21,616 nucleotides of DNA from Candidatus Woesearchaeota archaeon (GTDB lineage: Archaea; Nanobdellota; Nanobdellia; Woesearchaeales; UBA10216). Under the pieces are notes generated by a model. It had not been told where the DNA came from, ran no database searches, and worked only from the letters and a program-made list of their open reading frames with translations. The stretch lies in the NCBI GenBank assembly GCA_016180085.1, contig JACPBX010000029.1, forward strand, positions 1-21,616. Direction: 5' to 3'. Positions within the stretch are counted from its first letter, which is position 1, and every line of letters begins with the position of its first letter. Below, in pieces: positions 3,995-12,632 of the stretch. The position numbers were made by a program, and so were the translations under genes.

Positions 3995-5356
3995 ATGGTA
4001 CTTGAGAAGCTTGGAGAATCGCTGAAGGATGCTCTGCAGAAAGTTGCTAAGAGCATCTTTGTAGATGACACTCTGGTGAACGAGTTGGTCAAGGAACTGC
4101 AGAGGGCTCTTCTGCAGTCTGATGTGAACGTAAAGCTCGTGTTCGGCCTCAGCCAGCGAATCAAGGAGCGAGTCCTGAAAGAGGAGGTTCCTGGAGGCCT
4201 GACAAAGCGCGAATACCTTGTCAAAGTAGTTTACGAGGAGCTTGTAAAGTTCCTTGGCGGCGAGGAAAGCCAGATTGATACCTCTGCAAAGCCGACAACA
4301 ATAATGCTTTCAGGCCTGTTTGGCTCCGGCAAGACAACGACAGCAGGAAAATTAGCCAGATACTTCTCAAAACGGGCCCTGAAAGTAGCCCTTGTGCAGC
4401 TTGACGTTTACAGGCCGGCAGCATTTGACCAGCTCCAGCAGCTTGGCAGGCAAATTACCGTGCCTGTTTTCGGCAACAAGTCCGAGAAAGATCCGCTGAA
4501 AATTTACGGCAGCTGCGAAAACGAGCTTAAGAAATTTGATGTTGCGATTGTTGACACTGCAGGAAGGGATGCACTTTCAACACAGCTCATAGATGAGCTT
4601 AAATCCGTTGCCGATGCCATTAAGCCGAAGGAGAACCTTCTCATCATCAGCGCTGACATCGGGCAGGCAGCAGAGAAGCAGGCAACAGCCTTCCACGAAG
4701 CGTGCAAAATCACCGGTGTCATCATTACCAAGCTTGAGGGCACTGCGAAGGGAGGGGGGGCACTCAGTGCATGTGCTGTTTCTGGCGCTCCTGTCAAGTT
4801 CATTGGTGTTGGTGAGAAGATTGACGACCTTGAACGGTTTAACCCTAAAGGGTTTGTCGGCCGCTTATTGGGAATGGGCGATATTGAAGCCCTGCTTGAA
4901 AAGGCAAAGGAAGCAATGACAGAAGAGGAAGCCAAGGACATTAGCGAGAAATTCCTCAAGGGGGAGTTTACTTTGCTTGACCTTTACGAGCAGATGCAGG
5001 CCATGAAGAAGATGGGTCCCATAGCAAAGGTCATGGAAATGATACCCGGCTTTGGCCAGCTCAAGCTGCCGAAGGACATGCTTGAAGTGCAGGAAGGGAA
5101 GCTGAAAAAGTGGAAATTCGCGATGGACAGCATGACGAAGAAAGAGCTTGAAGACCCTGAGCTTCTTACCGCAGACAGGATTGACCGCATAGCAAAAGGC
5201 GCAGGAATCAGCAGCGGTGAGATAAAAGAGCTTCTGAAGCAGTACAGGCAGAGCAAGAAAGTTGTAAAGATGTTCAAGGGAGCCAGCCCCAAGAAGATGC
5301 AGCAGATGCTCGGCAAGATGGGCGGGGTGAAGGGGCTGGAAGGATTCAAGGCTTGA
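3995..5356 (+). CDS. srp54: Signal recognition particle 54 kDa protein
   Basis: ALLQSDVN, G1 GLFGSGKTTT, DVYRPAA, DTAGR, TKLEGTAKGGGALS, GTGE-like GVGEK, Met-rich M domain (FTLLDLYEQM, DRIAKGAG). Confidence 0.98.
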   Translation: MVLEKLGESLKDALQKVAKSIFVDDTLVNELVKELQRALLQSDVNVKLVFGLSQRIKERVLKEEVPGGLTKREYLVKVVYEELVKFLGGEESQIDTSAKPTTIMLSGLFGSGKTTTAGKLARYFSKRALKVALVQLDVYRPAAFDQLQQLGRQITVPVFGNKSEKDPLKIYGSCENELKKFDVAIVDTAGRDALSTQLIDELKSVADAIKPKENLLIISADIGQAAEKQATAFHEACKITGVIITKLEGTAKGGGALSACAVSGAPVKFIGVGEKIDDLERFNPKGFVGRLLGMGDIEALLEKAKEAMTEEEAKDISEKFLKGEFTLLDLYEQMQAMKKMGPIAKVMEMIPGFGQLKLPKDMLEVQEGKLKKWKFAMDSMTKKELEDPELLTADRIDRIAKGAGISSGEIKELLKQYRQSKKVVKMFKGASPKKMQQMLGKMGGVKGLEGFKA

Positions 5357-5392
5357 TGTGAGTTCTGTTTTTCTGCAACAGATTTATAAATC

Positions 5393-5407: not shown

Positions 5408-5467
5408 AGGGTTGATAAGGGCGCGAGCACTTGCCTTGTCCACCTTCAAGCGAGGGTTGATAAGGGC
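5408..5467. repeat. 15-bp direct repeat AGGGTTGATAAGGGC (5408-5422, 5453-5467)
   Basis: Exact duplication at 45-nt spacing. Confidence 0.9.
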
Positions 5468-5503
5468 CCTATTTTGGGGTATGGGGACTTCCTAAGTCCC
5501 CAT

Positions 5504-5519
5504 TGCCGGGATCGCATAA
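5504..5519 (+). repeat. Duplication of the tRNA-Ser(GGA) 5' end (TGCCGGGATCGCATAA)
   Basis: Identical to 6512-6527. Confidence 0.92.
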
Positions 5520-5611
5520 ACTTCTGAAAATTTTCCAAAATTTTCGTAATTAGCACTGGACACTGGACAAATGCCCGGCGAGAGTATATAAGCAACTTCT
5601 TCAAAAGGCTC

Positions 5612-5752
5612 GGAGGACCGCAGAGCTGCCAAATTATGCTTTTCCCTCCCTGCTGGCGAGGTCGGGCTTGCGCCCTAAAAGCAATTAGGCAGCTCCGCTC
5701 AGCGTCCTCCTCACCCGAGACCGAGATTTCTCAGCAAGGCGTGAGAAATCTC
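5612..5752. ncRNA. Unidentified highly structured non-coding region
   Basis: Nested perfect stems: GGAGGAC/GTCCTCC (5612/5704), GAGCTGCC/GGCAGCTC (5623/5688), GCTTTT/AAAAGC, GGGC/GCCC; plus an 11-bp hairpin at 5723-5752. Confidence 0.5.
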
Positions 5753-5783
5753 AACGCTTGATTGGGGTTTCAGAGGTAAAAAA

Positions 5784-6479
5784 ATGAATATTGCAACAAG
5801 AAACAAATTAAACATTATTTCGCGTTGGAAAAAAATTCAAGAAAAAGAAAAACATTACATTGAACAGGTAGGCACTCAACACATACATCTAAAAGCTCGG
5901 ATTCTGGGGTACTTAGCCGGAGATGGCAACATCTATATTGGAAAAACTATTCATAATCGTCATTACAGCATAAGATTCTTCCCGGATCACTCTTCATTGC
6001 TGGAACCATTTTGCGAGGCTTTTGTAAAGGTTTATAATAAAGCGCCTATAATTAAGCAACTAAAGAATAAGTATTGTGTAACTGTGGATTCAAAAACAGT
6101 TCTCTTTAATATTATTTCATCGGCGCGTTTTGGGGTGGTTAAATGGGAAGTTCCATTTGCCTTTCTTAGTAATGAACAATCAAAAATAGAATGGTTAAGA
6201 GCATTTTTTGACGCAGAAGGCTATGTTGGAAAAGACCATATAAAAATCCAAACGGTAAATAAAAAGGGAATGAACCAAGTTATGGAACTCTTGGAGCATT
6301 TTGGCATCCAAACTAATATGTATGAGTACAAACCCAAAAATAGCAGATGGCGCACAAATCATATACTAATCATCCACACGAAAGTTTCAAGAATTAGGTT
6401 TCTTGAAAAGATAGGTTTTAACCATAGTCAGAAAAAACAAAAGTTGGAGCAAACACTAAATTTTATAAAGGAATCATAG
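5784..6479 (+). CDS. Free-standing two-motif LAGLIDADG (intein/DOD-type) homing endonuclease
   Basis: Motifs ILGYLAGDG and WLRAFFDAEG, C-terminal RFLEKIGF...KKQKL; visibly more AT-rich than the flanking genes. Confidence 0.9.
   Translation: MNIATRNKLNIISRWKKIQEKEKHYIEQVGTQHIHLKARILGYLAGDGNIYIGKTIHNRHYSIRFFPDHSSLLEPFCEAFVKVYNKAPIIKQLKNKYCVTVDSKTVLFNIISSARFGVVKWEVPFAFLSNEQSKIEWLRAFFDAEGYVGKDHIKIQTVNKKGMNQVMELLEHFGIQTNMYEYKPKNSRWRTNHILIIHTKVSRIRFLEKIGFNHSQKKQKLEQTLNFIKES
6462..6469 (+). promoter_or_regulatory. Putative TATA box for tRNA-Ser(GGA), embedded in the endonuclease 3' end
   Basis: TTTATAAA ~44 nt upstream of the mature tRNA 5' end. Confidence 0.4.
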
Positions 6480-6512
6480 TCCAATACTTACGCCGGGCTA
6501 GGCCTTACAGAT

Positions 6513-6616
6513 GCCGGGATCGCATAACCTGGTAGTGCGCAGATAAGAGAAACTTAGTGTAACCCTGGAAAGGCTGTTCCCGCAAGGGTATCTGGGTTCA
6601 AATCCCAGTCCCGGCG
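6513..6616 (+). tRNA. tRNA-Ser(GGA) with a 20-nt non-canonical intron at 29/30 (6543-6562)
   Basis: Acceptor GCCGGGA/TCCCGGC+G; anticodon stem CAG|CC-CTGGAAA-GGCTG; long variable arm; T-arm CTGGG-TTCAAAT-CCCAG; BHB-type motif with GCGC/GTGT central helix and TAAG/CTTA intron stem. Confidence 0.93.
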
Positions 6617-6661
6617 TTAAGCAACGACGGGCTGGGGCTCCAAGCCGCTATGGCGAGGTTG

Positions 6662-6675
6662 TCCCAGTCCCGGCG
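6662..6675 (+). repeat. att-like copy 1 of the tRNA-Ser(GGA) 3' end (TCCCAGTCCCGGCG)
   Basis: 14-bp exact match to 6603-6616. Confidence 0.9.
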
Positions 6676-6748
6676 CTTTCTTTTTGTTGCAATTTATTAG
6701 TGATAAATAGTAGAAAGGTTTATAATTGATTGCTGAATAACAAAATTC

Positions 6749-10696: not shown

Positions 10697-10829
10697 GCCC
10701 CGTTCGTTCAGTCCGGTCAAGGACACGGCCCTTTCGCGTGACCTTTTACTCGCTTGCGAGCGAGCAAAAGCTCAACCAAAAACGTCACGAGGTAAGGCCG
10801 GGACCCGGGTTCAAATCCCGGACGGGGCA
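10697..10829 (+). tRNA. tRNA-Glu(TTC) with a 58-nt canonical 37/38 intron (10737-10794)
   Basis: Acceptor GCCCCGT/ACGGGGC+A; anticodon stem CGGCC/GGCCG; BHB CTTT/GAGG plus GTGAC/GTCAC; T-arm CCGGG-TTCAAAT-CCCGG. Confidence 0.95.
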
Positions 10830-10846
10830 CCTAATCCTTATACCGA

Positions 10847-12312: not shown

Positions 12313-12370
12313 AGACTAACATTATTTCTTGGTAATCTTTATAAGCTAAACGTAACGTTCTTCCCTTTAT

Positions 12371-12500
12371 GCCGGGAGTGGACGATCCGGTGCGTCCGTC
12401 CGCCTCGAATGACCCACGGAGACAACATGTCGACTGTGGCTCAACCAAAAAGTGAAAGCGGATTGCGAAAGCTATCGGGGTTCAAATCCCTGTCCCGGCG
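12371..12500 (+). tRNA. tRNA-Ser(CGA) with a 47-nt 37/38 intron (12410-12456) and atypical D-arm
   Basis: Acceptor GCCGGGA/TCCCGGC+G; anticodon stem TCCGC/GCGGA with loop CT-CGA-A; variable arm with GAAA loop; T-arm CGGGG-TTCAAAT-CCCTG; BHB central helix is imperfect. Confidence 0.85.
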
Positions 12501-12632
12501 TTTTCTTCTTGGTTTAAAGTACGACCGGTTTTAGCGGCGGAATATATCAGCCATCTTGGCTAAAGCCGGGTTATAAAAAATAAATGTTATATTTACAAAA
12601 GAGTTAAATAATAAATCTCATTACAAGCTATA

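Follow-up and report, generated by a model that had tools for sequence, protein, structure and literature searches.

A LAGLIDADG homing endonuclease gene that probably invaded a tRNA-Ser(GGA) gene as a free-standing cassette in a Woesearchaeota archaeon

We analyzed a 21,616-nt contig of a Candidatus Woesearchaeota archaeon (JACPBX010000029.1; hereafter the window), belonging to a 1.0-Mb metagenome-assembled genome (MAG) of 45 contigs and 83% completeness. Downstream of srp54, the window carries a LAGLIDADG homing endonuclease gene followed by a tRNA-Ser(GGA) gene, with fragments of a tRNA-Ser gene repeated on either side of this pair. As stated in a preliminary description of this DNA, the 16-nt sequence TGCCGGGATCGCATAA occurs exactly twice in the window, at 5504–5519 and 6512–6527, against a chance expectation of 0.01 (two matches in 0 of 100 shuffles); allowing one mismatch extends the repeat to 19 nt. 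A second exact direct repeat, unnoticed in that description, consists of the 14-nt tRNA 3′ end TCCCAGTCCCGGCG at 6603–6616 and 6662–6675, with an oligo-T terminator only behind the second copy. Besides the 5′ end, the 3′ end of the resident tRNA gene is hence duplicated. The locus comprises the following features:

3995–5356, + strand: srp54, matching Pfam SRP54, SRP_SPB and SRP54_N; its synteny with tRNA-Ser is conserved in relatives
5384–5391, + strand: native TATA box CAACAGATTTATAAA of the resident tRNA-Ser, kept in all empty alleles of congeners
5408–5503, + strand: native 5′ leader with two copies of AGGGTTGATAAGGGC and a 10-bp hairpin (5481–5503), ending 1 nt before the stranded stub
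5504–5519, + strand: outer 5′ stub, a T plus tRNA-Ser positions 1–15, the front of the resident gene; copy 1 of the 5′ repeat
5520–5553, + strand: T-rich left end of a promoter-leader module, possibly an insulator or terminator; homology to other module copies begins at about 5516–5527
5554–5591, + strand: promoter with a CACTGGACACTGGACA box and then GCCCGGCGAGAGTATATAA, resembling a B recognition element (BRE) and TATA box; 10 copies in the genome, each upstream of a gene
5612–5752, + strand: structured leader RNA with a Y-shaped rod (5612–5710) and an 11-bp hairpin (5723–5752), from folding and covariation
5773–5777, + strand: Shine-Dalgarno-like GAGGT ahead of the ATG, conserved at the module 3′ end
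5784–6479, + strand: LAGLIDADG homing endonuclease gene, 231 amino acids (aa), of the monomeric two-domain I-DmoI type by Pfam, AlphaFold2 (AF2) and Foldseek
6462–6469, + strand: TATA-like box TTTATAAA in the 3′ end of the open reading frame (ORF), a candidate promoter of the inner tRNA by its sequence and by a parallel in the homologous locus L033
6480–6511, + strand: spacer with a degenerate third copy of the tRNA 5′ end, CGCCGGGCTAGGCC, at 6491–6504, recognized by read-through translation and in L033
6513–6616, + strand: inner tRNA-Ser(GGA), probably supplied by the cassette, found by ARAGORN with introns allowed; copy 2 of the 5′ repeat at 6512–6527
6543–6562, + strand: 20-nt bulge-helix-bulge (BHB) intron at tRNA position 29/30, by the BHB rule with p=6542 and q=6563
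6617–6661, + strand: 45-nt spacer that pairs with the following 3′ stub as a hairpin, by folding and homology to genome G013
6662–6675, + strand: outer 3′ stub, tRNA positions 60–73, recognized as the second TCCCAGTCCCGGCG copy; the oligo-T terminator follows at 6676–6686

The ORF between the 5′ repeats is intact and matches Pfam LAGLIDADG_3 (PF14528) with an E-value of 6e-17. Both of its motifs, LAGDGN and FFDAEGY, are present and its GC content is 0.34–0.37 compared to 0.48–0.55 in the flanks, in line with the AT-rich, two-motif LAGLIDADG gene of the preliminary description. In an alignment of 29 homologues, the catalytic residue D47 is the same throughout, with E145 at least 90% conserved. 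The AF2 model (pLDDT 94.8, pTM 0.90) adopts the pseudo-dimeric αββαββα fold, and the nearest solved structures found by Foldseek are the PI-PfuI endonuclease domain (E 5e-12) and I-DmoI (E 2e-10), with TM-scores of 0.75–0.80 on the target. Sequence conservation and the predicted fold thus suggest a nuclease that is apparently active. Its closest homologue, encoded at L033 in another lineage, shares 67% identity. The gene lies in neither an intron nor an intein, which agrees with its earlier reading as a free-standing homing-type element.

For the adjoining tRNA gene at 6513–6616, default ARAGORN and Rfam gave no hit, nor did they report a tRNA anywhere else in the window; a tRNA-Ser(GGA) with a 20-nt intron was detected by ARAGORN once introns were allowed. 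Inspection by hand showed a 7-bp acceptor stem, a long variable arm and a discriminator G, as well as an intron between positions 29 and 30 forming a relaxed BHB, with a central helix of 4/4 bp and an intron helix of 4 bp. Homologous introns are present in L033 and in the congener genomes G005 and G001. Upstream of the tRNA, the TATA-like box reported earlier was indeed found within the ORF 3′ end, and L033 carries a TTTATAA box at the same distance, about 51 nt before its tRNA. The proposal that the element supplies a replacement promoter is supported by these two boxes, but falls short in that a whole replacement tRNA with a foreign anticodon stem is supplied as well. If the TAG at 6477 is read through, the same frame leads on to GCC GGG ATC GCA TAA, corresponding to tRNA nucleotides 1–15; the read-through translation is ...IKES*SNTYAGLGLTDAGIA*, with the ancestral ORF end at the TAA of 6525–6527. 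L033 contains the same degenerate tRNA 5′ pseudo-copy as the window at 6491–6504.

Several minor observations concern this region. A 15-nt inverted repeat (5573–5587/6484–6498; 13 pairs and one G-T) joins the BRE/TATA part of the module promoter to the degenerate copy of the tRNA 5′ end; we considered transposon terminal inverted repeats and rejected them, as the repeat is absent at the other promoter-module copies of the genome. An endonuclease-free allele, L110 of genome G019, contains at about 1155–1195 a partial upstream copy of the tRNA 5′ end (TTTGCCGGGGCAAGC ... TTTGCCGGGATCGC) that resembles the pseudo-copy and could be the footprint of a lost cassette. Furthermore, the inner tRNA-Ser genes of L033 and L042 carry an extra 13-nt insert between positions 8 and 9, e.g. 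GCCGGGAT|AATTTTTCCCGAA|CGCAT, which would amount to a third intron position adjoining the endonuclease gene.

The preliminary description had named an empty allele, with srp54 directly followed by tRNA-Ser, as a check on the insertion, and we identified this arrangement in seven congeners (G005, G008, G006, G007, G003, G001 and G009), where the srp54 3′ end is followed by the same CAACAGATTTATAAA box, a leader of ~50–190 nt and an uninterrupted tRNA-Ser. The window leader (5408–5503) aligns with the leaders of G008, G003 and G007, and it passes into the outer 5′ stub just as the leaders of the empty alleles pass into their tRNA. On the left, collinearity with these alleles extends to tRNA position 15; on the right, the sequence restarts from position 1, and the CTTT...T-rich tail behind the outer 3′ stub is similar to theirs. 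A search of nine congeners did not find the endonuclease gene in any of them, and its best match within the family, of 42% identity, belongs to another genus (G013). The same locus is thus polymorphic for presence and absence, with seven congeners carrying the empty site, showing that the window has an insertion relative to the empty alleles, and this insertion is young, with empty sites in sister species. An exact-match scan of metagenome contigs yielded no same-species empty or filled allele, and a scan with the donor-type tRNA 5′ part hit nothing beyond the L033 contig and a single unrelated tRNA with an intron. In four other genera where srp54 and the tRNA lie farther apart, the DNA between them contains ordinary genes and no endonuclease insertions.

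The native leader itself has some unusual properties. Its conserved TATA box lies ~110–120 nt before the tRNA-Ser in the window, compared to the usual 25–35 nt, and is similarly distant in the empty alleles L013, L014, L016 and L019. The leader hairpin abuts the tRNA 5′ end, and the leader could be the source of a small RNA or a processing signal. Of the perfect 10-bp hairpin ATGGGGACTT/AAGTCCCCAT (5481–5503) directly before the stub, contig C29 carries an 87% identical copy.

Comparison of the inner tRNA with its counterparts revealed sequence of two types. Its anticodon stem is CAGCC/GGCTG, it has G22 and it lacks an intron after position 37, identical to L033 in all three respects, whereas CAAGC/GCTTG, T22 and a 37/38 intron are found in each of the five congeners compared. 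In the D-loop and the variable arm, the inner tRNA is congener-like. This combination of an L033-like anticodon stem with a congener-like D-loop and variable arm indicates that the inner tRNA gene is a mosaic, as predicted by co-conversion; the signature comprises only a few positions, the anticodon stem and G22 being of the L033 and not of the congener type. Sequence comparison thereby shows the anticodon stem of the inner tRNA to be foreign.

These data bear on the idea that the endonuclease and tRNA-Ser form an old, vertically inherited and immobile pair, domesticated in its host, with the window repeats arising from local duplication and decay and not from homing. Such a history would fit the overlap of ORF and tRNA in a conserved frame (GCC GNG ATC GCN TAA) in several DPANN phyla, which implies long coexistence, and endonuclease clades that track the isoacceptor. 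It is at odds with the lack of the gene in the nine congeners searched, seven of them with an intact empty site, and with a nearest homologue of just 67% identity from another lineage. Moreover, the ORF is richer in AT than the genome, the anticodon stem is of foreign type, and two further loci (L041 and L047) carry stranded fragments from different tRNA-Ser genes. We therefore regard a domesticated pair as unlikely.

The endonuclease-tRNA-Ser arrangement is not confined to the window. A profile search of species-representative genomes detected 55 loci in MAGs of Woese-, Pace-, Nano-, Micr- and Iainarchaeota, and a set of 40 loci was examined for recurrence, with homologues at 34–67% identity and with the window and G013 included. 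The downstream sequence could be read at 38 of them, and all 38 have a tRNA-Ser gene there, its start ranging from 63 nt inside the ORF to 44 nt past its end and its anticodon being GGA, CGA or TGA. At 15 loci the TAA stop of the ORF is formed by D-loop nucleotides 13–15 of the tRNA, in the conserved frame given above. A tree of the endonucleases, built without L066–L069 as their matched range translates with stops, sorts by the adjoining tRNA-Ser isoacceptor, with 2 label changes compared to a shuffled mean of 13, and groups the window with L033 and L034. The pairing of endonuclease and tRNA-Ser is thus shown to be recurrent, and the recurrence that the preliminary description had proposed to look for is widespread in DPANN genomes. 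A chimeric join at short repeats, conceivable for a 45-contig MAG of 83% completeness that contains repeats, is hardly credible for the window: the 16- and 14-nt repeats are shorter than the usual assembly k-mers, the same architecture is found in ~40 independent assemblies, and the flanks are collinear with congeners.

At least 11 loci retain a stranded tRNA-Ser 5′ fragment upstream of the ORF. This fragment ends at position 29/30 in five of them (L036, L038, L039, L042 and L043), at 21/22 in L040, L041 and L047, at 26 in L044, at 13 in L033 and at 15–18 in the window. The 20-nt intron of the window tRNA, at position 29/30, coincides with the fragment ends of the five former loci. In L041, L047 and L038 the outer acceptor strand is mismatched to the 3′ acceptor strand of the adjoining tRNA, whereas the inner copy pairs perfectly; the outer piece is thus a relic, and it is the inner copy that works as a gene. 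Likewise, the inner tRNA of the window is the working copy. A stranded 3′ fragment is also kept in L047 and L068. In L047 this 3′ stub matches the 5′ stub of the same locus, which shows a resident tRNA-Ser split by an endonuclease alongside a complete second tRNA-Ser. An intron at positions 27–30 was counted by eye in 16 of 16 endonuclease-linked tRNAs of the GGA type versus 2 of 12 endonuclease-free syntenic tRNA-Ser genes of the family, the relatives not being independent of each other. The tRNA 5′ end/promoter junction, which had been suggested earlier as the target, does not agree with the distribution of stub ends. Since the stubs of the family stop inside the tRNA, between positions 13 and 29 and mostly at 29/30, the target is more likely the tRNA body, in the D-arm/anticodon-stem region.

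Alternatively, the 1008-nt and 59-nt stretches could be giant BHB introns, with the outer stubs as exons expressed from the native promoter and the endonuclease encoded within an intron, as in archaeal rRNA introns. The native promoter and leader do adjoin the outer 5′ stub and the oligo-T terminator lies behind the outer 3′ stub; in addition, G005 and G008 have a genuine 59/60 intron, exactly at the start of the 3′ repeat, and ARAGORN reports an 883-nt "intron" in L055. We rejected this possibility by applying an explicit BHB rule over all slides of both repeats: at no splice-site position within either repeat is the motif formed, the best case combining a central helix of 4 bp with only 2+2 flanking pairs. 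The 20-nt intron is accepted by the same rule, which, applied by hand, also fits the 59/60 introns of G005 and G008 (TTCA/TGAA in G008). Considering further that the inner tRNA is complete and contiguous, and that the outer acceptor strand is mismatched to the 3′ acceptor strand in L041, L047 and L038, giant introns are very improbable. As a separate observation, tRNA-Ser T-loop introns at 59/60 occur in L012 (G005), L013 (G008), L033 and L023 (G013); all end in TGAAAG, which gives a 4-bp BHB central helix (TTCA/TGAA).

The 45-nt spacer and the second TCCCAGTCCCGGCG copy together form a stable hairpin (−30.6 kcal/mol, z −3.2). Among 25 genomes of the family, the motif of this 3′ element was detected only in the window and behind the endonuclease-linked tRNA-Ser(CGA) of G013, and the spacers of both loci are homologous, their score being reached by only 5 of 2000 shuffles. 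A derivation of the spacer from tRNA positions 44–59 was tried and found unsupported, as 28% of shuffles score as high. Searching 151 genomes of the order for 12-mers of the spacer gave counts no higher than a reversed-pattern control; this set includes the unpublished genomes G155, G144 and G135, on which no claim rests. The 3′ element may have been left by the resident gene, may belong to the cassette or may be the relic of an attachment-site (att) duplication.

Archaeal integrative elements duplicate part of a tRNA gene, and it is conceivable that all repeats of the window are att duplications of an integrase-type element in the tRNA gene, with the endonuclease as cargo or a later arrival. 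Partial tRNA-gene duplication is typical of such elements, and a 14-nt 3′ repeat around a mere 45 nt resembles a relic attL/attR pair. Between the repeats, however, there is no integrase or recombinase, the LAGLIDADG gene being the sole ORF of at least 60 aa, and it is mainly the tRNA 5′ end that is duplicated. Dozens of genomes contain the same small unit, in which the ORF is fused to this end of the tRNA, and the 3′ element is limited to two endonuclease-linked tRNA-Ser loci in the 25 genomes of the family. We consider an integrase-type origin most unlikely.

Upstream of the endonuclease, the 264-nt promoter-leader module (5520–5783) has copies of 81–86% identity on three other contigs of the genome and many in the genus; it is a portable unit that numerous unrelated homing-nuclease genes have in common. 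Its elements follow in the order T-rich start, CACTGGACACTGGACA box with BRE/TATA-like element, leader RNA and Shine-Dalgarno-like GAGGT, of which the box with its BRE/TATA-like element is present in ten copies in this genome. The leader RNA folds into a Y-shaped structure plus an 11-bp hairpin with a minimum free energy of −69.2 kcal/mol (z −5.5). Across 19 copies from the genus and family, 87% of cells form canonical pairs and 16 of 55 pairs show double changes; Rfam returned no match for the leader. All 19 copies of the module lie upstream of an ORF. Module-linked ORFs with Pfam nuclease matches are all of the homing or restriction type, comprising LAGLIDADG_3 (at least nine), an HNH-associated repeat, an Mrr-like and an endonuclease I/DUF559-like protein; of the others, one has helix-turn-helix domains only and four match nothing in Pfam. 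A CACTGGACA box also precedes the homing endonuclease genes of L033 and L034, and CACTGGACACT that of G013. These three loci have the box and TATA element only, and the absence of the leader there indicates that the window cassette is a composite.

In this genome, CACTGGACACTGGACA and a TATA box without the leader were further noted before non-endonuclease genes (C3:255, C5:5149, C21:2332, C36:11949, C36:13713 and C42:31056), of which two are BRO-N-like by eye, one has a DEDD-exonuclease-like motif and others are small unknowns. The position of CACTGGACACTGGACA boxes before such genes suggests a regulon of mobile-element or defence genes.

Taken together, we conclude that the resident tRNA-Ser(GGA) gene behind srp54 has probably been invaded by a free-standing LAGLIDADG cassette. 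The insertion would span 5520–6661 and consist of the promoter/structured-leader module, the endonuclease gene, a short spacer, the intron-bearing replacement tRNA-Ser(GGA) and the 45-nt tail. It would have left the resident gene as two stubs, the first 15 nt on the native leader and promoter (5504–5519) and the last 14 nt on the oligo-T terminator (6662–6675). As to the mechanism, the enzyme would cut endonuclease-free tRNA-Ser genes in the D-arm/anticodon-stem region, probably near 29/30, and repair from a filled allele would copy the cassette and co-convert adjoining tRNA sequence. If a locus lacks homology upstream, joining of the left end would be non-homologous and would strand the resident 5′ part up to the point of cutting or resection; in the window the right end seems to have been joined likewise, without homology, leaving both resident ends stranded as direct repeats. 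The filled allele would be immune, with the outer stub truncated and the target in the inner tRNA interrupted by the 29/30 intron. Expression of the inner tRNA might proceed from the TATA-like box in the endonuclease 3′ end or by excision from the endonuclease transcript.

Some points weigh against this reading. The target site and the immunity role of the intron are putative. The window stub ends at 15–18 and not at 29, and the 29/30 intron is also present in two endonuclease-free congeners (G005 and G001). For the 45-nt tail and the 3′ repeat, several sources are conceivable, the spacer being homologous to that of G013 and its similarity to tRNA being non-significant. Unlike in most members of the family, the ORF stop of the window lies 33 nt before the tRNA. 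Finally, the relatives are non-independent samples and mostly MAGs.

The closest published analogue of a homing endonuclease gene with a duplicated host-gene segment is the fungal mitochondrial mobile ORF (mORF), where LAGLIDADG or GIY-YIG genes lie in atp6, atp9, cox2 and nad3 with the gene end duplicated, for example in Allomyces macrogynus atp6 and in Glomus (PMC3630166). The window shares the defining feature of these elements, a duplicated host-gene segment with a functional inserted copy and a displaced native copy. In both systems a free-standing endonuclease gene enters an essential gene and brings along a foreign replacement of the adjoining segment. The displaced native segment is either not expressed or in decay, the ORF commonly shares the reading frame of the host gene, and the inserted copy diverges more than the native one. 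In contrast to the protein genes that host mORFs, the host gene in the window is an archaeal tRNA, of which the 5′ end or the whole gene is replaced and not a C-terminus. Moreover, the ORF of the window family lies upstream and runs into the tRNA, whose D-loop nucleotides serve as the stop codon, and in the window the replacement copy comes with a small BHB intron.

Free-standing homing endonucleases are also familiar from T-even phages under the term "intronless homing", an example being SegB in the tRNA gene cluster of T4. There, the endonuclease gene is intergenic and adjoins the gene that its product cuts in genomes lacking the endonuclease; it is passed on through repair of the double-strand break, in which flanking markers are co-converted. 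The window arrangement would resemble this in the intergenic position beside the target and in repair with co-conversion; it differs in that the phage enzymes are of the GIY-YIG type without duplication of the target gene, compared to a LAGLIDADG enzyme in a cellular archaeal host. The intron-encoded I-DmoI and I-PorI and the intein PI-PfuI share fold and catalytic motifs with the window enzyme. Their genes, however, reside within rRNA BHB introns or inteins and are spliced out, whereas the window gene is located outside any spliceable intron and has its own putative promoter. A stranded 5′ tRNA fragment followed by a mobile element and a complete tRNA with an extra intron is said to have been described by Sugahara and colleagues in 2012 for tRNA-Thr(GGU) of Caldiarchaeum subterraneum; that element reportedly measures 1.8 kb, encodes a recombinase and not a homing endonuclease, and is known from a single locus, in contrast to the widespread homing-endonuclease family considered here. 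Group I introns in archaea have been reported exclusively from rRNA genes (PMC6125680), and our full-text literature searches did not turn up any account of archaeal tRNA genes arranged with an endonuclease.

How archaeal tRNA genes gain non-canonical introns and become split is an old open question, and disruptions of tRNA genes have long been thought to protect against invading elements. The endonuclease-tRNA-Ser pairing may help to explain both intron gain and fragmentation. As a tentative extension, which we rate as less likely than not, the family might itself create disrupted tRNA genes by cutting intron-free tRNA-Ser near 29/30, stranding fragments and co-transferring a BHB intron that blocks recutting, and might thereby explain the abundance of oddly placed introns in DPANN tRNA genes and the origin of split tRNAs. 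The locus offers a testable system, comprising an apparently active nuclease, its presumed target in the empty alleles of sister species, a filled allele with stubs on both sides and a small intron at the site where the stubs of other genomes stop. It also points to a mechanism of entrenchment: the insertion has separated the sole tRNA-Ser(GGA) detected in the 83%-complete genome from its native promoter, and expression of this tRNA would rely on sequence within the selfish gene. On the practical side, a tRNA-Ser(GGA) is wholly missed here by standard tRNA and Rfam scans.

Two further intron-bearing tRNAs of the window, tRNA-Thr(TGT) at 10697–10831 and tRNA-Ser(CGA) at 12370–12501, were likewise seen only with introns allowed. 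Genome-wide, ARAGORN reported only 23 tRNAs, many of them with long introns.

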